Made by a program: the position numbers and the translations under genes
Notes under the pieces: model-generated
What the model saw: only the letters and a program-made list of their open reading frames with translations
Told to the model about the DNA's origin: nothing
The model's database searches: none
Part shown: positions 2,465 through 15,858 of the stretch, in pieces
Layout of the letters: each line of letters opens with the position of its first letter
How positions within the stretch are numbered: the first letter of the stretch is position 1
Origin: Macrostomum lignano
Taxonomy: Eukaryota
Assembly: GCA_002269645.1 (NCBI GenBank)
Contig: NIVC01002436.1
Location: 1 to 16,161, forward strand
DNA: 16,161 nucleotides
Direction: 5' to 3'

Positions 2465-2611
2465 GTAGCATGAAAACCAGTAGCTGAGCTGATTGAGGGC
2501 AGGGTCAAGCAGGACTAAAGTCGCTGGTGACGTAACAGACAGTGAGGCGTCTGGCAATGTACTTATGGTGGCTCGCATCTGCACAGAGGAGGTTATACTG
2601 GTAGTAAAGGG

Positions 2612-2689
2612 CAGGGTGTACTTACTTTTGCACAGGTGTGTTTGAGCATTTTTTGCCATAGCTCCGTAGCCACAAAGAGTTTTTCAAAG
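2612..2689. repeat. Partial right Tc1 TIR (inner DR only)
   Basis: Exact reverse complement of 1305-1382; the match stops at the first base of the LTR (2690). Confidence 0.92.
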
Positions 2690-3115
2690 TGATGTAACCA
2701 CGCTCTGGTCGCGGGATAGGGCATGGGAACTTTTTTGAAAGTGCCTCCTATCCCGTGCACCCTCTGCACAGAGCTGTCGAGACTCGGCCAGGTCTCCGAC
2801 CGGGCCTGGAGACTCCCGCTCTGCTGCACCCCTCCTGCTGCCTTGGTCCCGTCTCTCCTGCCGCCACACCTGCCTTTCCGGAGCCCCTACCCCTTTCTGT
2901 ACCTCCCCCTCTACCCTATCTCTTCTGTTCCCGCCCTATTCTTCCTGTACTTTCTCTACCTCCTCCCTTTTTTTTGTCTCCCTCTGCACTCTTTTCCTGC
3001 GCTGTCCCCTCTTTCCCTGTGTCTACTTACAGTACTTTGTGTGCTCACCGTCTCCCCATCCCCTCTCAAACTCCCAAACGGTGACGCAAGTCGTGTGACC
3101 CCTTCTCCCCCTCGG

Positions 3116-3494
3116 TGACTCATCGATGACTCATCCCCCTCTCTTGCGCAACCTTTTCTCACGCTATTGTTCTCCTTCCCAAATTTCTCATGTGACACCC
3201 ACCCCACCTCCGCTTCTATTGTTCTCGTTTTTGCTTCTTTTGTTCTCTCGACCCCCACCAATTATCACATTTTCTCCGATTTTCTCTTTCTTTTGTTCTC
3301 GTTTTCGCACCTAATTATCACCTTTTCTCCAATGTTTACTTTTCCATTGTTCTCAGTTTTCCCCAATTATCCCCGATTTCCAATTCCTTTGTTCTCGACC
3401 CCAGCCCTATTGTTCTCAATGTTTGCTTGCGCAACACTTTCGCGACCACCCGCTGCGCCAATTATCCCCCCACCCCACCTCCGGATTGCGCAAT
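3116..3494 (+). promoter_or_regulatory. U3 enhancer-like motif array (also in the 3' LTR)
   Basis: TGACTCA at 3116 and 3127; TTGCGCAA at 3144, 3427 and within ATTGCGCAAT at 3485; seven TTGTTCTC between 3164 and 3417; four AATTATC; a degenerate period of about 53 bp over 3238-3390. Confidence 0.55.
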
Positions 3495-3539
3495 TTCCCG
3501 ATTTCTCATGTTGCTATGCCGGTCTCATGCTTCTCATCA

Positions 3540-3631
3540 TGACTCATTCTGACGTCATTCTGCCGGCAGCCAATCAGAGAGAGGGAGCCATGGTAACGAC
3601 CTTGAGGAGGCGGCTGTGAGGTCTATAAAAG
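3540..3631 (+). promoter_or_regulatory. LTR core promoter: AP-1, CRE, CCAAT, X-box-like, TATA
   Basis: TGACTCA 3540-3546, TGACGTCA 3550-3557, CCAAT 3570-3574 within AGCCAATCAG, CCATGGTAAC 3588-3597, TATAAAAG 3624-3631 (3' copy at 13736). TSS inferred near 3655. Confidence 0.7.
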
Positions 3632-3958
3632 GAAGCGATTTCGGCATGAGAATACTCAACTGAGTTTATCTCTGTTCCTCTCCTCGTCCTTCTTTGGACT
3701 TGCTGTCAGATTGAGTTCTGACCCATTCGTCTATAAGACGAATCCCTGCCGGTCCGCGGTCTGTTACCGCCAAGTTATCCTTAGCTCCCCAAGTGAGCTC
3801 GCCTATCGGCCAGCGGTCTGATACCGCCCAGCATCATCAGCATCGCCTGATCTACATCAGCGCCTCGTCGCTCCAGCGCATCGCCGCTTCACCGTCTGCC
3901 TGACTGCAGCCTACAGCCGCCCTCGGTCACTCCGCCTCTCTCTCTCTCTGTGCAGCTG

Positions 3959-3967
3959 CCGGTAAGT
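3959..3967 (+). promoter_or_regulatory. Candidate 5' splice donor inside the LTR
   Basis: CCG|GTAAGT with the intron starting at 3962 (14075 in the 3' LTR); full match to GTAAGT. Confidence 0.5.
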
Positions 3968-4911
3968 TCCTACTACTAATTTGTGCTCTAATTGCCTTTG
4001 CTTATCCGGGGTTTGCCTATTTTCCATTGTCTGATTAGAGAGCTGAGCCAATTGTGATACCGTATCTTTTGCTGTATTTTACTCAATAGTGAAGCCGCCT
4101 AATTGCCTGCTTATTTGCCTAAGGGCCTAATTATTAACTATTAACTAACTTCATCATTATTCAATCTTTCACCATCATTTCACTCATGGCTTGCTAAGCC
4201 TTTCTCCCGGGGTGGCAAAGCATAAGGAAGTTTGGGTAAGCTAATGGCCTCTCCCCGTGCAAAGCCCGCCTGTGAGTGCGTGCTGCGGGGCCGCGTGTGC
4301 GTGCAGTAGAGGGATTAGCGAGTCTTGGCACAGAATGGCAGTAGGAAGGTTGCAACCCCATGCTAACGCGTCCCTTCGCCCTGAGCAATCTAAACTGTAG
4401 ACAGTACATGTTCGCCTCATACTACTCTTAGTAATCAAAGTCGCAAGTCAGCCTCGCTCACAGCCACAAAGGATCCCCTGCTGAGAAATCCTCCAGGATT
4501 GAGCCCAGAGTTCCCGATCATGCCCCAAGCAGAGTCCCTGTACTCGGCTGCATGCGTCTCCCCTGTTAGCCTAAATCCCCTGGTAACCAATCCAGGCGGG
4601 GCTCTAGCCTCGAGAGGTCTGGTAGAAAGATCCAGGTGCGCCAGGTCACATAGAGTGGTGGCAGCCACTCGGTCATACCATGACCGAGTGACCAACTATT
4701 GCACCTTGGCTACAGGTGGGGTCCATGTGGGTCCTTGGCCCTCTGGTCACGAAGCGCTACCAAAGCTACTAATCATGTGGGCGGGACAGTCTGGTGCTGG
4801 AGGTCCGTCAGGTCATTGCCCGGTCATAGGCAGCCTACGGTCATTGCCCCCTCTAGCCATGCGTTCGTCTCTCTACGGAGCGGACAGGCGACAAGGGCGG
4901 TTACATCAAAA

Positions 4912-4929
4912 TGGTGGCAGCGGTGGGAT
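4912..4929 (+). other. Primer-binding site, tRNA-Leu (AAG/UAG-type)
   Basis: TGGTGGCAGCGGTGGGAT, 3 nt after the LTR, is the reverse complement of ATCCCACCGCTGCCA-CCA, which I recognise as the 3' end of metazoan tRNA-Leu(AAG/UAG). Confidence 0.85.
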
Positions 4930-7259
4930 CTGGTGCAAACAGCGCTGAGTTTCGGACTGGTGGTTTAGATGTGACAAGCGCACCTGTGGCATCCCTCAGA
5001 ATGGTGGCCGAAGCGCAAAGAGTGCCATGTCTAAATCTACCAATCGTAAAAATCGCCAATCGTCATTCTCTTCTCCCATGGCGTGAGGCAACAAAATCCA
5101 AAAATATTAATGTAACTTTTCAAATTTTTCGGGCTGCGAATTCGTTCAATTCATTCGAAATTTCCAAATTCATTCATTCGCCAAAAGCCCCTGATTCAAT
5201 TTAAAATTAATTTAGCCGATCAGTTTCAGCGCTAGAAAGTGTGAAGTGGTAGACGAGCGGATTTGATTACAATCAGAATAGCTACCTGGTAACGGAGTGT
5301 GTGAAGAACTGCGAAAGTGAATTTTCCGGACTCACTTTCTATTTCATGGTAATATGCTTTATTTCCCCTCCCTTTCTTTCTCTCGCCTAGCCTACAGCAG
5401 AACTGTGTGAGTGTTGAGGTGGACAGCCAGCCAGGTACGGAAGCCTCATCACGCAAGCACAGGGAAGCTGGAAGCGAAGCATTTCTTTCCTTTGTCCTAC
5501 CTCTTTCTTTTACTCGGGGGAGTGTAACAGTCGCTCTCCCTGATCGCTCAGTTAATCCTAGAAATGCGTAGAGACCGGAGCGTGTTTTGTTTGTCCATTA
5601 GAATGAACAGCTATCAAGGGCTATGGGGAACTCGCTATATATGCATAGTAAGGGAAGCAGTAGTCATGGCCTTGGAAACATTGGGGGATACCAAAGTCTC
5701 GCAGGAATGGGAATAGCGGTGTGATTGTATCTCTGTAGGGTATCAGTGTGACTCAAAAATCTCGGGCTAAAAAAAGTGTCACCTCCTATGGAATACCTGC
5801 GATCAGCCCGGACCTGAATTCTGCGGTAACCCCTGGTGCCTTCATGGCTGGGATTCGATCCCAACGTGTCTGCTGACTCTCCCCACTGTATTGCAGACCC
5901 GGTAGTAACTGCTTTGGTTGCATTTGGGCTGGTGCAGTGGCTGGAAATAGTAGATCCCATAGTATCCTATTGATAGTGGAGTTCAGTGAGTATTGGAATG
6001 GTGTACTGGAAGTCTGGTGGCCCCAGTGATCTCGTAATGTTTCCTGCTGCATTCTCCTCCTTTAGTAATTCCTCCCCCTGCTGTCAGTCTGATAGGGGAG
6101 GTGGGTGTGCCAATCAGCCCGACCCGGTAGAACGGCGCTCCTGCCCGACTTGTCAGCCTGGCCCAGGAAGGCGCTATTGCGCAACTCTTTTCCCCTCTGG
6201 CCACTGCAGCCCACTAAGCGCTTAGACGCAGGGTTGCATGCAGTCCCCTAATGTAAAGCCCCGGTACATAGAGTGCCACCCCAGTGCCCCGCAAGGTCAA
6301 TAAGACGGGTTGACGTCTCTGGCAACTTGGAATAACCTAGATGGAGGTACCGCTGTCTCCTGGTAGAACCGGGCGTTCAAGTACAGTAAAGTGGAGAGGC
6401 TGACAACTGTAGGACTTTCTCCGCCATCAGATAAAGGTCCCAAGTATGCTATTTCGAGCTGCAGCAAAGGTGGAGTATCGGAGGGGCAAGCATTTCAGGA
6501 AGATACTCACTTAGGTCTGTTTATCCTAGGAAAGCGGGCGAGAGTTTCAGGCTTGTAATCCGCCTAACCTGAAAACTTCGGGGACAGTTTAGTCTGGACT
6601 CCCGCTGCGCGCCTTCGCTCTGAACAGAAGGGGGAGGTCTTGGTTTTTGTGGATTCTGCTAGACGTAGGGGAGCTGGATTCCCGCCTTTTGTGAAGCTGC
6701 GTGTACAAGATTGGTAGTCCTGAGGTGGAAGCCCCACTGGACTCCGACGGTTTTCCGGCTGTGCAAGGGCAGTAAAGTGGGAGGACCTCCATGGGGATTG
6801 CTCCCGCCACTTGGGTTTTTGGGTCCAGGCGCCAACGCTTCTTCGTAGTAGCTTTCTTAAGGAAATGGGGTCCGGCGCGCAACCCTAGGGGAGAATTTGT
6901 ACAGGTGCCGTAAGTCCGTTTACGGTCGGCATTTGGGTTCCCTAGCATGGCCGCAAAATGAAGGTCAAGTCTCTCTGAATAGCCAATTTTTCCCTGTCAG
7001 GATGTGCCATAGACAACTGGTAGTGGTAGCCGCAGTTTGAGTCAGTGTGCTTTGCCGAGTGAAGCCGTTAGGACTGCCTAAATGGAATTATGTGGAGCCA
7101 CCCGTTTTTCAATTTGTTTTCTTCGACGCCGCAAGTGTGTGAGTTTTGTCTGTGTTTGTGTGTTTCGGATCAACTTTTCGGTCTTTACCTGTAGTTGCCC
7201 CGGTTTTCTTTTCTTTTCCTTCCCGGTAGTGGGTACTCCCCCAGCTATCCGGCTTTCAC

Positions 7260-9503
7260 ATGTCACGGGCGCGTGGAGATAGGGTCGTAGAAGCTGTGTG
7301 CGCAGACGCCCCTGGTCAACCACCCTCGGCCGCTGACACCCCAGCAGTTGCCGCCCCCGCAGCCGCAATGGCCGCAGCCGCTGGTAATCAGGCCAACCAG
7401 CCTCCAGATGCAGTAGTTACTGATGAGCCTGACATAGGAGCTGCCGCTCCTAACCCAGAATCAGGGGGGCATGTCGCCGTTGCGGCTCCTCCCGTTTGTC
7501 AACCTTCTTCAGTCATCGTCCTAGAACCGAAGGTACGCCCCCAGTTTCATCTCGACCCATTCAATGAGTCACGGGACAACATCTTCCTGTGGGTGGGGCG
7601 GCTCGAATTCAAGTTCAAAGTGGAGGACATCAGCACCGATGCCGATAGAATCCTCACCCTAATCAGCCACCTACAAGGCGAACAGCAAGATATCGTCGTC
7701 GGCCAGGCGAGGCGGCTTGGCACCTATTCTCAGCTGCGTGACATGCTGGTGGAACGTTGCGTAAGTGTGTGGAGCCCCATGGCCCGACACTGCTTCAACC
7801 AGACGCTGGAGCAGGAGCCCGAGGAGAGTGACTTCCGCTTCGCGACCCGCCTGCTCCGCACCCTCCAGTGGACCATGCGTGGCCGGCCGCCGGACGAGAT
7901 TGATCTGGAAGCGCAACTTGCCTATATGTCCAAGGCCCGGATGCCGCGAGATGTGCGAATTCAGCTCCTGGCGCAACGACAGTTCCCCGATGTGACCGCT
8001 CTCGTGACTCGTCACCAGGAGCTGAGCGAAGCCGTACAGTTGGCGGAGGCCTTCGACACCGACTCGCCGGCCCAGCCAGAAGAAACCGAACCCGACCAGC
8101 CAACACCGTCTCTACCTTCGCCACCGCCGCCGTCTCCTCCGAAGGCTTGGTGGGTGGCGACGGGAGGCGATATGGAACTAACACCGTGGTCGGAGACTAC
8201 CGTCAGAGTGCGAGGGCGACCTTGGGAAGGCGACTGTCTGGTGGAGGGAGTCGACATGGAAGCCTTCCCGGAGATCGCGGTCAGTCGCTCGTTGGACCAA
8301 GCCGTAGACGGGTGGGTCCGAGTTCGCCTCATCAACTGGTCCGAAGAACCGGTACAGCTGCCCGCTGGCACGGTAGTAGCGCAGGCGAGCGCCTTAAAGG
8401 AAGTGGCCCTGGTCAACCGGATTACGCCAATGGGCAACACCGGGCCCGGCCCCACAGCCACTCCAAAGGATTCAACAGCTGCCAGGAAGCCGCCGGACTG
8501 GATGAAAGACCTGGAGATGGGCAGTCAACTCTCTCCCCAGGAGCGGCAACGGCTATTACGCCTACTCAACGACAACACCGATGTCTTCGCCGAGGAGGAG
8601 AACGACCTGCGGGTCACCGACGTCGTCACACACGAAATCAAGTTGACGGACTCGAGGCCCGTCAAGATGCATCCAAGACGCCTCCCTCAGGCCTACCAGG
8701 AAGAAGTGCGGCACCAGGTGCAGGGCTGGCTGGAGACCGGCAAGGTAAAGGTCTCCAAGAGTCCTTACTCCTCCGCGTTGGTCTTGGTCCCCAAAAGCGA
8801 TGGATCGTTACGAGTGTGCATCGATTTCCGGGAGGTCAACGAGCGCAGCGTGGCCGAGGTAACCCCTCTGCCTCGAATCGATGAGCTGCTGGCTTCGCTG
8901 GGCGGGTCGGCGTACTTCACGTCCCTCGATCTGCGGAGCGGTTACCACCAAGTGCCCATCCAGCCGGAATGCCGCCCCTACACTGCATTCGCTGTGCCCA
9001 ATATGGGGCTGTTTGAATGGAACGTAATGCCGTTCGGACTGAAGGGCGCCCCAAGTACCTTCTCTCGGCTGATGAACCTGGTGTTGGCCGAGCTCCAACC
9101 CGCAATCGCAATGGCCTACATTGACGATGTCATCGTGCATTCTCGCGATTTTAGCACCCACCTGAATCACCTGCAACTTGTCTTTAACAAATTAAGAACA
9201 GCAAACCTGCGGCTGAAGCCGTCCAAGTGTGCTTTCGCCAAATCCGAGGTCACCTTTCTAGGATATGTGGTCTCGAGAGAGGGCGTCGCACCCTGCCCGC
9301 ACAAGACGTGTGCCATTGACACCTGGCCGCGGCCCCAGAGCGTCACGGAGGTCCGCCAATTCTTGGGGAAGGCCGGATATTATCGGCAGTTTATTCCCGA
9401 CTACAGTGAGGTGGCCGCACCACTGCACGCCCTGACTAAGAAAGGGACGAAGGACATCCCGGGTCGCTGGGGCCCGAGCAGGAACAAGCATTCGAGAAGT
9501 TAA
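7260..9503 (+). CDS. gag-pol: Gag (capsid-like) - dUTPase-fold-like segment - reverse transcriptase, first part of the polyprotein
   Basis: Gag-like region about 7530-8042 (DPFNESRDNIFLW, QEPEESDFRFATRL). RT motifs LRVCIDFR, LDLRSGYHQ, MPFGLKGAP, YIDD (9117-9128), FLGYVV. No CCHC knuckle and no D[ST]G. Confidence 0.93.
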   Translation: MSRARGDRVVEAVCADAPGQPPSAADTPAVAAPAAAMAAAAGNQANQPPDAVVTDEPDIGAAAPNPESGGHVAVAAPPVCQPSSVIVLEPKVRPQFHLDPFNESRDNIFLWVGRLEFKFKVEDISTDADRILTLISHLQGEQQDIVVGQARRLGTYSQLRDMLVERCVSVWSPMARHCFNQTLEQEPEESDFRFATRLLRTLQWTMRGRPPDEIDLEAQLAYMSKARMPRDVRIQLLAQRQFPDVTALVTRHQELSEAVQLAEAFDTDSPAQPEETEPDQPTPSLPSPPPPSPPKAWWVATGGDMELTPWSETTVRVRGRPWEGDCLVEGVDMEAFPEIAVSRSLDQAVDGWVRVRLINWSEEPVQLPAGTVVAQASALKEVALVNRITPMGNTGPGPTATPKDSTAARKPPDWMKDLEMGSQLSPQERQRLLRLLNDNTDVFAEEENDLRVTDVVTHEIKLTDSRPVKMHPRRLPQAYQEEVRHQVQGWLETGKVKVSKSPYSSALVLVPKSDGSLRVCIDFREVNERSVAEVTPLPRIDELLASLGGSAYFTSLDLRSGYHQVPIQPECRPYTAFAVPNMGLFEWNVMPFGLKGAPSTFSRLMNLVLAELQPAIAMAYIDDVIVHSRDFSTHLNHLQLVFNKLRTANLRLKPSKCAFAKSEVTFLGYVVSREGVAPCPHKTCAIDTWPRPQSVTEVRQFLGKAGYYRQFIPDYSEVAAPLHALTKKGTKDIPGRWGPSRNKHSRS
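8148..8410 (+). other. dUTPase-fold-like domain, probably non-catalytic
   Basis: SLDQAVDGWVRVRLINWSEEPVQLPAGTVVAQ aligns by eye with the dUTPase pattern VIDxDYRGEIxVxLxN...IxxGDRIAQ, but lacks the motif III Tyr and a recognisable motif V. Confidence 0.5.
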
Positions 9504-11890
9504 AGCGCGCCTTGGTTACCGCCCCGGTGCTGCACCACCCAGATTTCGGGCCTCAGGCGGGCATCTTCGTGCTCGACTGCGACGCGAGCTTGAATGCCCT
9601 GGGTGCAGTCCTCAGCCAGAGGCAAGCGGACGGAAGTGAGCGGGTCATCGCCTACGGGAGCCGAAGTCTGGTGTCTAGTGAGCGTAACCACTGTGTCACC
9701 AAACTGGAGATGCTCAGCCTAGTGTTCTTTACGCGACAATTCCGGTATTACCTGCTAGGTCGCCGCTTCATCGTCCGCACTGACCACCGCTCTCTGACGT
9801 GGCTAAGAAATTTCAAGGAGCCGACCGGATTGATCGCTCGCTGGTTTACTCACCTCGCTGAGTACGATTTCGAAGTGGAATACCGCCCTGGGCGGCTACA
9901 CACCAACGCCGACGCGCTCAGTCGCCGGCCTGCACACCAGCATGGGGACTGTCCCATCTGCCGACCGCCAGAGGACGCCCGACCACCAGGGGAGCTGGAC
10001 GAGGACTTGCGAACTTTCCGAGTGGAGACAAAGAGGCGTCTGCTGGAACAGCGGGACCTCCTCAGCAAGGCGGAGCTCATGGAAGCGCAAAGGAAGGACC
10101 CTGCCTTGGCCTGGATCATGCGACGACTAGGAGAAGGTGCAGAGAAAGCCCCGCCAGCTGGGACGGAATTGTGCCCACCCTTGGTGCGCCGGGTGGCCCC
10201 TTTTTGGGGCTTGCTCAGTGTGGACGAGGGCGTACTAAGGATTGATGTGGAGGGGGTCGCGGCCAAGAAGAAAATCGTGTTGCCCGAAAGCTTGGACCAG
10301 AAGGTGTTCCGGTTGCTGCACGACGATCCTCTGGCCGGGCACTTTGGGCGAAGGAAAGTGGACGAGCGCTTTCGCCAACGGTTCTGGCGCCCCGGCCTGC
10401 ACCGACGGATCGCCGAGATGTGTGCGGCCTGCGAGTGCTGTTTGCGGTCCAAGCCGCACAAGCGGGCCAAAGCTTCGCCGCAATCTCTTGAACTTAGCGA
10501 GAAGTTCTCTCGCATTCACTTGGATTTTGTGGGGCCCCTGGGTCGAGGCCAGAAGTCAAGGAAGGGGAACACCAGTATCCTCACGGTGACGGACAGCTAC
10601 ACCGGCTGGGTCGAAGCTTACCCTACCCGGGACCAGACATCGAAGACCGTCATCCGTCTGCTGGTGCAGGAATACATACCGAGGTTCGGAGTACCTGACT
10701 GGATACACACGGATCAGGGACAGCACTTTGAGTCCCGGGACTTCCAGCGCTTTTGTGACTCTCTGGGTATCCGCAAAACCCGCACGACGCCATACCATCC
10801 TCAATGCAATGGGAAGGCCGAAGTCCAGCACCGCACGATCCGGGCCCTGTTGACGGCGCAGCTGGAACAGGACCACGACTTGTGGGATGAGAAGCTGCCG
10901 GCATGCCTCCTGGCGATGCGTTCCAGCCTGAACCGCATGACGGGGTATTCCGCGTTCAGCTTAACGTACGGGCAAGAGGCTCGACTGCCCTTGGACGTCG
11001 CTCTCGAGCCAGCTGAGGCCGCTCCCGGGCATGCTGCCTACGCGGCCCGTCTGGCGGCGTATCTCGATCAGGCGCGCGCAGATATCGAGGAAAAGTTCGA
11101 GACCCGAGTTCAACACCAAGCGCGCCGACCGCAGAAGTGCCGCAGCCTGGACATCGGTGACATTGTGTTCTTGGCCAACCCTCATCTGGAAGAATGGGAG
11201 ATTCCTAAGTTTCACAAGGCGTTCACCGGCCCCTGGAAGGTGGTGGCCCAGCCGTCCCAGGCCGTGTTCGACATCGCCCCGGTGCACCCCCAGCCAGGCA
11301 GGCCCGCGGTATACCGGACCCATCGCGATACGCTCCGTCCCGCGCCGGCCCAATATCAGCCCGAGGTGCCTCAGGCAGCTGCCCGCAAGTCTCCTGCCGG
11401 ACCGGGCCGACCACCAGTTCGCCCAGCGCCTCGAGCCCCGGAAGCACCGCAGTGGTTCCCCGACTCCGATTCGGAGGAAGAAGAGGAAATGTATGTCAGA
11501 TGGCCTCTGCGAAACCGGCTCCCTCCGGTGACGGTTCCCGCCGAAGTAGCATTGCCGCCGGCAAACCATCCAACCCAACCAGTTGACGTCCCAGAGCCCG
11601 CCGCCGATCAGGAACCAGTAGAGCAGGGCCCGCCAGCCCCCGAACTGCCCACGCCCCCCGCAGCGGGAGAGCTCGAAGCCAACGAGGAACCGCTGGATGA
11701 GCCACCGTTGGGCCCCGTGTTGCGCCCTCGGGCTGCCCTGAGGCGCCCAGAACGTTGGGGTTACGAGGTGCGGCGGCTGGATTCGACCCAGGAGGCAGAT
11801 GACTCCGACTACGACTGGGGCCCTCCATCGGACCCAGAGGACTGCTGGAACAGCAGCATCAGTGGGTCACTTGACTGGGATCCTCCCTGA
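9476..11890 (+). CDS. pol: RT connection - RNase H - integrase - Pro/acidic tail, in the -1 frame relative to 7260..9503
   Basis: EQEQAFEKLKRALVTAPVL from 9476. RNase H motifs DCDAS, KLEML, RTDH, NADALS. Integrase HHCC (HDDPLAGH...CECC), D,D(35)E (HLDFVGP, HTDQG, GKAE) and a GPW motif. Confidence 0.93.
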   Translation, partial: EQEQAFEKLKRALVTAPVLHHPDFGPQAGIFVLDCDASLNALGAVLSQRQADGSERVIAYGSRSLVSSERNHCVTKLEMLSLVFFTRQFRYYLLGRRFIVRTDHRSLTWLRNFKEPTGLIARWFTHLAEYDFEVEYRPGRLHTNADALSRRPAHQHGDCPICRPPEDARPPGELDEDLRTFRVETKRRLLEQRDLLSKAELMEAQRKDPALAWIMRRLGEGAEKAPPAGTELCPPLVRRVAPFWGLLSVDEGVLRIDVEGVAAKKKIVLPESLDQKVFRLLHDDPLAGHFGRRKVDERFRQRFWRPGLHRRIAEMCAACECCLRSKPHKRAKASPQSLELSEKFSRIHLDFVGPLGRGQKSRKGNTSILTVTDSYTGWVEAYPTRDQTSKTVIRLLVQEYIPRFGVPDWIHTDQGQHFESRDFQRFCDSLGIRKTRTTPYHPQCNGKAEVQHRTIRALLTAQLEQDHDLWDEKLPACLLAMRSSLNRMTGYSAFSLTYGQEARLPLDVALEPAEAAPGHAAYAARLAAYLDQARADIEEKFETRVQHQARRPQKCRSLDIGDIVFLANPHLEEWEIPKFHKAFTGPWKVVAQPSQAVFDIAPVHPQPGRPAVYRTHRDTLRPAPAQYQPEVPQAAARKSPAGPGRPPVRPAPRAPEAPQWFPDSDSEEEEEMYVRWPLRNRLPPVTVPAEVALPPANHPTQPVDVPEPAADQEPVEQGPPAPELPTPPAAGELEANEEPLDEPPLGPVLRPRAALRRPERWGYEVRRLDSTQEADDSDYDWGPPSDPEDCWNSSISGSLDWDPP

Positions 11891-12087
11891 GGTGCCACTC
11901 TTGCGGGTCAGCCCCTGGCCCCGTGGAGATTAGAATCATTATTAGGACGATGACTTCACCTTAGGCACTGTACCGTATGACAAGATATATTTTACTACTG
12001 CAATTGGCTCAGTTTGACATGAAAGGCATGGCGAATGGGTGGATCTCGCATAATGTACAGGTGAAAAGAAATCAGGTTGGTGATGGG

Positions 12088-12270
12088 ACTTACCGAGTAG
12101 TTGTATAGTTTGGAAAATCGCGCTGAGTGCCTTGGTTGGAAACTGCGACTCCGTGTAGGTTGCAGGCAGCCGGCTCCCGTTATCAGTGGCGCCTTTTATA
12201 CAGTGGCCAGCGCACGGCGCGGCGCCTCCCAGCCTACAACCGATCGCCCCGAAGCCCTCTGACTGGCTGA
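12088..12270 (-). promoter_or_regulatory. Candidate internal antisense promoter and first exon
   Basis: On the minus strand: CAGCCAGTCAGAG around 12266, TATAAAAG at 12200-12193, then CG|GTAAGT with the intron starting at 12093. Confidence 0.5.
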
Positions 12271-12787
12271 AGCGGGGTCCGAGCCTTCAAGGACGCTAGG
12301 CCTCCGTGCGGTTGAACTCCCGGCGAAATTAGCTTATTAATTTACTGCGCTGCATTAGTATTTTTCCCCTGTGTAATTGTCATTCTCCCCGAGGCTCTGC
12401 CCTTGGCTGTGTGCTAGCAACCCTTCCCCCCTTCTTTTTCCCCACTTCCCTCACCCTTCCCCGTTTCCTCTCTTTCCCAGCTGCGCTTCTATCCAATTAT
12501 GATAATTTATTGTTGACAATTCGCTATTTTTCTCCCTACTATTGCGCTGTCTGTGTTTCCCCCCTCCCACTTTAGCCACAGCAACAGTTGAAATTTTTGA
12601 AATTCTGTATTGCACTCCAACCTATGTATCTCGTTTGTGAATTTATTGCTATCCCCTCTATTTTATCGCCTTTTTCCATTCCCGCTCGCGGTTTGTTAAT
12701 TCTGTGATTTCACGTTCGGTTGAGATCCCGCTCCCGTCTGTGTGGTTCCATGTTGGGCAGTGATGATGACGGAACCAGTTCCGTCAC

Positions 12788-12804
12788 AAAAGGCAGTGGG
12801 GGTG
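12788..12804 (+). other. Polypurine tract
   Basis: AAAAGGCAGTGGGGGTG directly before the 3' LTR. Confidence 0.8.
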
Positions 12805-15021
12805 TGATGTAACCACGCTCTGGTCGCGGGATAGGGCATGGGAACTTTTTCGAAAGTGCCTCCTATCCCGTGCACCCTCTGCACAGAGCTGTCGAGACTC
12901 GGCCAGGTCTCCGACCGGGCCTGGAGACTCCCGCTCTGCTGCACCCTCCTGCTGCCTTGGTCCCGTCTCTCCTGCCGCCACACCTGCCTTTCCGGAGCCC
13001 CTACCCCTTTCTGTACCTCCCCCTCTACCCTATCTCTTCTGTTCCCGCCCTATTCTTCCTGTACTTTCTCTACCTCCTCCTTTTTTTGTCTCCCTCTGCA
13101 CTCTTTTCCTGCGCTGTCCCCTCTTTCCCTGTGTCTACTTACAGTACTTTGTGTGCTCACCGTCTCCCCATCCCCTCTCAAACTCCCAAACGGTGACGCA
13201 AGTCGTGTGACCCCTTCTCCCCCTCGGTGACTCATCGATGACTCATCCCCCTCTCTTGCGCAACCTTTTCTCACGCTATTGTTCTCCTTCCCAAATTTCT
13301 CATGTGACACCCACCCCACCTCCGCTTCTATTGTTCTCGTTTTTGCTTCTTTTGTTCTCTCGACCCCCACCAATTATCACATTTTCTCCGATTTTCTCTT
13401 TCTTTTGTTCTCGTTTTCGCACCTAATTATCACCTTTTCTCCAATGTTTACTTTTCCATTGTTCTCAGTTTTCCCCAATTATCCCCGATTTCCAATTCCT
13501 TTGTTCTCGACCCCAGCCCTATTGTTCTCAATGTTTGCTTGCGCAACACTTTCGCGACCACCCGCTGCGCCAATTATCCCCCCACCCCACCTCCGGATTG
13601 CGCAATTTCCCGATTTCTCATGTTGCTATGCCGGTCTCATGCTTCTCATCATGACTCATTCTGACGTCATTCTGCCGGCAGCCAATCAGAGAGAGGGAGC
13701 CATGGTAACGACCTTGAGGAGGCGGCTGTGAGGTCTATAAAAGGAAGCGATTTCGGCATGAGAATACTCAACTGAGTTTATCTCTGTTCCTCTCCTCGTC
13801 CTTCTTTGGACTTGCTGTCAGATTGAGTTCTGACCCATTCGTCTATAAGACGAATCCCTGCCGGTCCGCGGTCTGTTACCGCCAAGTTATCCTTAGCTCC
13901 CCAAGTGAGCTCGCCTATCGGCCAGCGGTCTGATACCGCCCAGCATCATCAGCATCGCCTGATCTACATCAGCGCCTCGTCGCTCCAGCGCATCGCCGCT
14001 TCACCGTCTGCCTGACTGCAGCCTACAGCCGCCCTCGGTCACTCCGCTCTCTCTCTCTCTCTGTGCAGCTGCCGGTAAGTTCCTGCTACTAATTTGTGCT
14101 CTAATTGCCTTTGCTTATCCGGGGTTTGCCTATTTTCCATTGTCTGATTAGAGAGCTGAGCCAATTGTGATACCGTATCTTTTGCTGTATTTTACTCAAT
14201 AGTGAAGCCGCCTAATTGCCTGCTTATTTGCCTAAGGGCCTAATTATTAACTATTAACTAACTTCATCATTATTCAATCTTTCACCATCATTTCACTCAT
14301 GGCTTGCTAAGCCTTTCTCCCGGGGTGGCAAAGCATAAGGAAGTTTGGGTAAGCTAATGGCCTCTCCCCGTGCAAAGCCCGCCTGTGAGTGCGTGCTGCG
14401 GGGCCGCGTGTGCGTGCAGTAGAGGGATTAGCGAGTCTTGGCACAGAATGGCAGTAGGAAGGTTGCAACCCCATGCTAACGCGTCCCTTCGCCCTGAGCA
14501 ATCTAAACTGTAGACAGTACATGTTCGCCTCATACTACTCTTAGTAATCAAAGTCGCAAGTCAGCCTCGCTCACAGCCACAAAGGATCCCCTGCTGAGAA
14601 ATCCTCCAGGATTGAGCCCAGAGTTCCCGATCATGCCCCAAGCAGAGTCCCTGTACTCGGCTGCATGCGTCTCCCCTGTTAGCCTAAATCCCCTGGTAAC
14701 CAATCCAGGCGGGGCTCTAGCCTCGAGAGGTCTGGTAGAAAGATCCAGGTGCGCCAGGTCACATAGAGTGGTGGCAGCCACTCGGTCATACCATGACCGA
14801 GTGACCAACTATTGCACCTTGGCTACAGGTGGGGTCCATGTGGGTCCTTGGCCCTCTGGTCACGAAGCGCTACCAAAGCTACTAATCATGTGGGCGGGAC
14901 AGTCTGGTGCTGGAGGTCCGTCAGGTCATTGCCCGGTCATAGGCAGCCTACGGTCATTGCCCCCTCTAGCCATGCGTTCGTCTCTCTACGGAGCGGACAG
15001 GCGACAAGGGCGGTTACATCA
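12805..15021 (+). repeat. 3' LTR (2217 bp)
   Basis: Direct repeat of 2690-4908 with the same TGATGTAACC...GGTTACATCA ends; followed by TCTGG rather than a PBS or TSD. Confidence 0.96.
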
Positions 15022-15266: not shown

Positions 15267-15670
15267 CATCGCAAACAGTGGGAGGCATGAACCATGATTA
15301 CTAATTATTATTATTATTAATATTACATTATTAATTAAATGACTAAAAATTATGAATTTATAAATACAATATGAACTTTCTTAAGGATACTAGCTTCCTG
15401 CCAAAAACTAATCAATACAAATCTATAAATGAAAATCTACATTACGCTTTTAATTATGCTTAATCATGCTTTCTATTATTAAGAATACATTACAGACAAT
15501 CTATAATTAAATAATTATTTTGCATTTTAAATATCCTATTATCGATTAATAATTCTGATTATTAATATATCATCTGCTTCGTGACATTCAATAAACTTTA
15601 ATTTCATTTCCTTTATTATAATTATCTGGTATCATGGGATACACATCTGGTATTCAGATAATATATATAC

Positions 15671-15820
15671 AAAGGGAACAAATTGGATAATGGGAAAGGG
15701 GAACAGATTGGGATAGTGGGAAAGGGGAACAGATTGGGATAATGGGAAGGGGAATACATTGGATAGTGGGAAAGGGGAACACTTGGGATAATGGGAAAGG
15801 GGAACACATTGGGATAATGG
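15671..15820. repeat. Minisatellite, six copies of a 24-26 bp unit
   Basis: Consensus about AAAGGGGAACAGATTGGGATAATGGG, copies head to tail without spacers. Confidence 0.9.
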
Positions 15821-15858
15821 AGATGCTAATCAGCACGGGCTGGCGAAGCCTCAGTCAG

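Follow-up and report, generated by a model that had tools for sequence, protein, structure and literature searches.

A candidate antisense promoter between integrase and polypurine tract of a defective Ty3/gypsy element from the flatworm Macrostomum lignano

The window analyzed here, a stretch of 16,161 nucleotides from Macrostomum lignano (contig NIVC01002436.1 of assembly GCA_002269645.1, forward strand), carries a Ty3/gypsy-type element in which two LTRs of 2.2 kb with TG...CA ends, a primer-binding site, which we take to be of the tRNA-Leu type, and a polypurine tract (PPT) are all present (Table 1). Reverse transcriptase (RT), RNase H and integrase (IN) follow one another in that order between a leader of 2.35 kb and a 3' UTR of 914 nt, and the best matches of pol are 34-46% identical. 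The element is a defective Ty3/gypsy derivative. Searches returned no Rfam match, no tRNA gene and no heat-shock element, a 23-nt promoter word was absent from JGI metagenomes, and no relatives were present in viral contigs. None of the six families that PMC12801592 describes in detail was matched to the present element, and a family documented in the supplement of that paper has LTRs of about 340 nt.

Table 1. Features of the element, of the candidate antisense unit and of the blocks common to the window and its partner
Feature	Position	Strand	Remarks
5' LTR (TGATG...CATCA)	2690..4908	+	U3 with 3 AP-1-, 2 CRE- and 3 C/EBP-like sites and several CCAAT words
LTR sense unit	3567..3967	+	CCAAT 3567-3579, TATA 3624-3632, ATG-free exon about 3654-3961, donor CCG/GTAAGT
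Primer-binding site	4912..4929	+	from sequence
AATAAA proposed as poly(A) signal	5358..5363	-	chance level
119-aa ORF proposed as accessory gene	6589..6948	-	chance level
Strongest plus-strand acceptor of the element	7207..7229	+	30 nt upstream of the gag ATG; rank 1 of 272
Gag-like region joined directly to post-protease spacer and RT	7260..9503	+	reading frame interrupted close to the RT/RNase H boundary
RNase H and integrase frame	9440..11890	+	domain search
Diverged but alignable partner segment	11971..12067	.	about 80% alike, other sequence beyond 11971; X7 record 23, X15 record 7
Shared 3' block, near-unchanged in partner	12068..12804	.	contains the whole antisense cluster and the PPT; X2 record 16
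Splice donor CG/GTAAGT	12088..12095	-	intron base 1 = 12093; GGTAAGT = 12094-12088
Predicted ATG-free first exon	12094..12170	-	putative start site
TATA box TATAAAAGG	12192..12200	-	9-mer identical to that of the LTR
GC-box-like GGGAGGC	12224..12230	-	between CCAAT-like site and TATA; loose pattern, weak
CCAAT-like 13-mer CAGCCAGTCAGAG	12257..12269	-	NF-Y-type flanks, core mutated to CCAGT; fails exact NF-Y consensus
Polypurine tract (PPT)	12788..12802	+	from sequence
3' LTR	12805..15021	+	6 differences from the 5' LTR in 2220 columns

No protease was recognized in front of RT. A profile built from 65 of 81 long relatives gave only a chance match of 2.7 bits to an aspartic protease when all six frames were searched, the element contains no D[STC]G motif, and a CCHC knuckle is absent from the Gag-like region. 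The post-protease spacer of the relatives starts at 8160 (E 1e-39); between 7260 and 8160, the proline-rich end of Gag passes straight into this spacer. An assembled contig from one sequencing run (X15) has no substitution relative to the window over 7358-12081, and the loss of the protease is therefore not an assembly error. Over the same stretch the two differ by one gap, and the break between the RT and RNase H frames (9440-9503) may be private to the present copy or an assembly error. Two protein searches returned no close relative of Gag; for a capsid domain, Retrotrans_gag clusters at 0.85-0.88 are no more than a lead, one nematode CCHC-type protein matched the Gag region at E 3e-4, and DUF7041 stayed below the cut-off. 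As the pol carrier has no protease, this enzyme is needed in trans. A partner element, described below, is the obvious candidate source, and its interior may also simply be that of a diverged complete element.

The Gag mRNA is probably spliced from a donor inside the LTR, thereby skipping the primer-binding site, or trans-spliced. The 308-nt LTR exon (3654-3961) is free of ATG, as are 52 of 1036 windows, and the unspliced leader contains 40 ATGs. Two plus-strand acceptors in the 3' UTR, at 12481 and 12576, are strong (ranks 2 and 6 of 272). Downstream of the LTR TATA box (3640-4908), none of 12 common poly(A) hexamers occurs on the plus strand.

According to the initial annotation, a second, minus-strand promoter lies in the interval from IN to PPT. 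The motifs on which this annotation relied, the CCAAT-like 13-mer, the TATA box and the donor CG/GTAAGT, are all present in the window sequence at the correct positions. The LTR counterpart of the 13-mer is CAGCCAATCAGAG (3567-3579 and 13679-13691), with which it agrees in 12 of 13 letters, the TATA word is matched in nine of nine letters, and the donor heptamer GGTAAGT recurs in the LTR at 3961-3967. We also reproduced the reported spacing, i.e., 66 nt from CCAGT to TATA on the antisense strand and 54 nt from CCAAT to TATA in the LTR. Judged as an NF-Y box, the antisense site has appropriate flanks and an appropriate place upstream of TATA, and fails in the pentamer, which reads CCAGT instead of CCAAT. 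Because the CCAAT pentamer is described as an almost absolute requirement for NF-Y in mammals (PMC6843132), the site may be dead. The sequence context of the putative start near 12170 is GAGCCGGCTGCCTGCA, and by eye no clear initiator is found around this position. The cluster coincides with a local peak in GC content (0.60-0.66) and CpG density (10 per 100 nt) at 12141-12340, the remaining windows of the 3' UTR ranging from 0.38 to 0.59 and from 2 to 8 per 100 nt, respectively. The antisense unit itself is devoid of AP-1, CRE and C/EBP words, and no minus-strand ORF of at least 70 aa starting with ATG occurs within 11891-12804.

In order to avoid circularity, the frequency of such clusters was assessed with generic rules, which ask for TATAWAWR, for a donor 50-450 nt downstream of this word and for RRCCAATSR with no more than one mismatch 30-110 nt upstream, and chance was modeled by dinucleotide shuffles of the 914-nt 3' UTR (n = 5000) and the 7.9-kb interior (n = 600), either strand being accepted. 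TATAWAWR and a donor alone arose in 143 of the 5000 UTR shuffles and in 48 of the 600 interior shuffles, and the complete ordered set including the NF-Y-like site in 39 and 9, respectively. With the strict words derived from the LTR, a post hoc choice, none of the 5000 UTR shuffles scored. The minus-strand cluster at 12200 is the sole one on both strands of the real interior that passes the generic rules; when an exact NF-Y site is required, the real 3' UTR sequence fails the cluster test. Taken alone, the donor heptamer is at chance level (three matches were reached in 19 of 200 shuffles). The absence of ATG from the proposed exon of about 75 nt, which had been listed among its hallmarks, is real for the 77 nt from 12170 to 12094 but uninformative, since 449 of 1082 real non-coding 77-nt windows are likewise without ATG.

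The shared motif words are the textbook consensus sequences of NF-Y, TATA and U1; they are general consensus sites, chosen after the fact from a large scan. Four scorings were used to align the antisense unit with the LTR unit. Out of 1000 shuffles each, 81, 2, 62 and 4 reached the observed score, and with every scoring real pol windows outscored the alignment. An additional match of 14 out of 16 letters to LTR exon 1 occurs in the right order. A likeness this marginal does not show common descent of the two units, and with general consensus words and a mutated CCAAT core it was an overstatement to say that the cluster mirrors the LTR promoter. The case for descent from an inverted LTR is likewise marginal. 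A resemblance of 12271-12804 to U3 was rejected, since equally good scores came up in 29 of 1000 shuffles and in 4 of 65 control windows.

We linked these results with information from 24 sequencing runs, 20 of which were guessed to be RNA and four of which are of undefined kind. All data are assembled contigs, which are strand-less and drop minor forms, and four runs (X7, X8, X2 and X15) were compared with the window in detail. The interior is present wholly or partly in 18 of the 24 runs, and nine runs carry a share of 0.34-0.39 of its words because a partner element with another interior exists. Contigs match the window through LTR and leader up to 7392 in all four runs and match it again from 11971 or 12051 up to the PPT-LTR junction, with other sequence between these points. 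Loose ends of at least 255 letters were seen behind 7392 in all four runs and before 11971 in two of them; X15 record 7 extends 1834 letters beyond 11971, giving a partner interior of at least 1.8 kb. By eye, the 5' edge of this interior resembles a diverged gag. In X15 the shared leader reaches a word depth of 305.5, and the partner contig has a depth of 184 against 39.1 for the contig with pol; these values hint at more partner copies and do not represent copy number. The low or absent coverage of pol in X7 and X8 is not taken as a sign of expression. Length differs from the window at three non-coding places in all four runs.

The complete antisense cluster lies in the block that the partner shares. 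X2 record 16 (12051-12803) has five other letters (12054, 12058, 12062, 12067 and 12378) and one gap (12633), with zero substitutions over 12068-12377. X7 record 23 and X15 record 7 have 19 other letters, 12 of them listed at 12016-12067 and the other seven placed by deduction from X2 and X8. The last partner difference is therefore found about 20 nt behind the antisense donor, and a random break would fall within 25 nt in about 3 of 100 cases (a post hoc figure). Divergence that begins just behind the donor would fit a retained module and lends it weak support; recombination over a replication block would give the same picture. The identity with the partner can stem from a recent exchange by recombination across a block that packaging or priming requires, and not from selection on a promoter. 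The leader is near-identical in all four runs, so that no signal of selection can be read there.

Partner-type contigs cross the antisense donor unspliced in all four runs, and those of X2 and X8 continue through the promoter into the PPT-LTR junction; sense RNA or DNA suffices to explain them fully. Among the joints listed, none falls at 12093/12094 and none leads from the LTR donor to the leader, which is no evidence of absence. The X2 and X8 contigs end near 12042-12051 and those of X7 and X15 continue, a pattern that a variant among partner copies explains. One X8 contig departs from the window exactly behind 3961, the LTR donor, into sequence outside 2600-12804. This suggests that the LTR's own donor is in use, and the departure may reflect LTR-driven splicing into a host exon or into the partner interior.

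More distant relatives were surveyed in 80 metagenome loci (best segment 29-65% identity), 38 of which have at least 500 nt behind pol. The loose cluster test was passed by 2 of these 38 on the minus strand and by none on the plus strand, neither of the two contains TATAAAAG, and blastn and tblastx gave no similarity of UTR, leader or LTR to the 80 loci. Among relatives this distant, the antisense cluster is therefore no trait of the family as a whole.

The explanation that we tentatively prefer, with a confidence that stays somewhat below even, is that the minus-strand cluster is an internal antisense promoter producing a spliced non-coding RNA in the manner of micropia or HeT-A. A TATA-type promoter between IN and PPT would start near 12170 and face pol. 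Because the antisense unit is without AP-1, CRE or C/EBP words, we propose that it borrows an enhancer, probably the U3 array of the 3' LTR, which lies 0.9-1.4 kb away and back to back. The early donor at 12093 would favor elongation of the capped antisense RNA, and this RNA, complementary to the interior of the element, could pair with genomic RNA or feed ping-pong piRNA, so that the family would be damped via double-stranded RNA or piRNA. Ping-pong piRNAs against transposons have been described for M. lignano (PMC4604429). The motifs, their order, their rarity and their place in a cis block common to two partners are observations, and together with the GC/CpG peak they make the second transcription unit of the initial annotation plausible; transcription itself, use of the donor, absence of a protein product and silencing are predictions. 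The same design of promoter, exon and donor appears to work in the LTR, as judged from the X8 contig that leaves at the LTR donor, and both the lack of a longer minus-strand ORF and the precedents of micropia, HeT-A and TART speak for a non-coding product. The CCAGT core, the absence of a clear initiator, the post hoc consensus words and the absence of the trait from distant relatives speak against a promoter, and the combination of a perfect TATA box and a strong donor would be no less suited to a coding mRNA.

A doubtful but serious alternative is that the cluster is inert. Its consensus words would then have come together by chance, or would be what is left of a decayed structure such as an inverted LTR piece of older date, and the cluster would persist through its place in a 3' block that is homogenized among the partners. 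The mutated CCAAT core and the failure of the exact NF-Y test are in line with it, as are the frequency of TATA plus donor in shuffles, the uninformative exon and the contigs that cross the donor unspliced in all four runs, and the 14/16 match to LTR exon 1 would suit a relic. However, the full ordered cluster is rare under generic rules, the GC/CpG peak sits at the same place and the divergence boundary just behind the donor, and homology to the LTR is no more than marginal. If the cluster is inert, interest is left in the partner structure only.

It is unlikely, although conceivable, that the promoter and exon 1 belong to an antisense accessory gene in the interior of the partner, of the Grande gene23 type, and are mere passengers in the pol-bearing copy. 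The loose ends at 7392 and 11971 attest to a partner with another interior, a strong TATA box, a strong donor and an ATG-free exon suit an mRNA leader, and antisense ORFs between pol and the 3' LTR are common in plants, with a promoter of their own in Grande (PMC7264820, PMC11963269). On the other hand, the gag-like 5' edge of the partner interior means that sense genes may fill it.

Hardly tenable, finally, is the further proposal of the initial annotation, in which a splice from the exon to the leader would skip all of gag-pol and allow expression of the 119-aa ORF found there, gag-pol thereby coming to lie nested within an intron. The ORF and the single minus-strand AATAAA do exist and stand in the right order, a purine occupies position -3 of the ORF start, and both intron ends lie in partner-shared blocks, so the splice would work whatever the interior. 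However, when the leader was shuffled 1000 times, an ATG ORF of at least this length arose in 169 cases and a minus-strand AATAAA in 523. A simple pyrimidine score places the minus-strand acceptors upstream of the ORF (6974-7077) at ranks 26, 31, 79, 97 and 181 among 225, three of the five would place an out-of-frame ATG (7011) first, and the strong leader acceptors are on the plus strand. The ORF is without a match in Pfam or the Atlas (recognition 1136), its exact sequence is absent from the collection, and reading through two places of length difference between the runs and the window opens no long ORF in the leader.

For the preferred reading, that of an internal antisense promoter, several known systems offer comparison. 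On record in the literature covered are antisense promoters of micropia, Grande gene23, AtRE1, HTLV, HeT-A and TART (PMC7264820, PMC11963269, PMC2615633). Micropia of Drosophila hydei, also of the Ty3/gypsy type, has an internal antisense promoter and forms non-coding RNAs of 1.0 and 1.6 kb against pol (PMC7264820, PMC2615633). Its RNA is demonstrated and testis-specific, whereas here a promoter facing pol is a candidate predicted from sequence, which lies between IN and PPT with a strong donor behind it. Gene23 of maize Grande has its own antisense promoter in the interval between pol and the 3' LTR (PMC7264820), and the corresponding intervals of RIRE2, Retand and Grande are kilobases long with a conserved antisense ORF (PMC11963269). 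The putative promoter of the present element occupies the same interval, which in contrast measures 914 nt and lacks a minus-strand ATG ORF of the above size, so that the test for a Grande-type ORF failed in this copy. HeT-A and TART are read from a promoter close to the 3' end into non-coding antisense RNA that is spliced, and they also have a link to small-RNA silencing and an enhancer shared by two directions (PMC2615633), but they are non-LTR telomeric elements with heterogeneous starts, whereas a TATA-type unit in an LTR element is concerned here. HBZ of HTLV-1 is likewise read in antisense from the 3' end of a retroelement, with its promoter inside the 3' LTR (PMC7264820). It encodes a protein, whereas no protein is evident for the present cluster, which stands at a distance of 0.5-0.7 kb from the LTR. 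The reason why some LTR elements retain antisense promoters is still debated (PMC7264820). Animal cases are few. For M. lignano, there are transgenesis and reporter assays with LTRs, piRNAs are described from its stem cells (PMC12801592, PMC4604429) and RAMPAGE data exist (PMC5730564), and a TATA-type spliced antisense unit in such a flatworm would, if true, be directly testable. Neither an antisense unit in a Macrostomum LTR element nor a protease-less pol carrier with a partner was found in the literature covered; other parts of PMC12801592, Repbase and subscription papers may describe the family.

The protease-less element and its partner may be a better lead than the antisense unit. We consider it improbable, yet worth stating, that the two form one two-part retrotransposon, in which one member, itself devoid of a protease, would contribute RT, RNase H and integrase and the other Gag and protease, both would have the same LTR, leader and 3' block, and a spliced antisense unit in this block would read into either interior, setting the balance of the partners or expressing an accessory gene. 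If mutual dependence is true, this would be an unusual division of labor among animal gypsy elements. In soybean, autonomous and non-autonomous partners reportedly swap terminal regions (Du et al. 2010, cited in PMC6894440). The likeness consists in two interiors under near-identical LTRs and flanking cis blocks; the difference is that here the carrier of pol is the defective one.

No target-site duplication of the element is present, the flanks reading AAAG and TCTG. Upstream lies a Tc1 element (1169-2689). Its transposase shares 94% identity with a protein of Macrostomum lignano and no more than 68% with any of the other 119 matches listed. The LTR interrupts the right inverted repeat of the Tc1 element, and this repeat is not continued beyond the 3' LTR. 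Two insertions may be joined at the locus, and for this reason the identity of the LTRs does not date the present copy. The 3' flank contains a 26-nt tandem array of the GGGAAAGGGGAAC type at 15667-15846.
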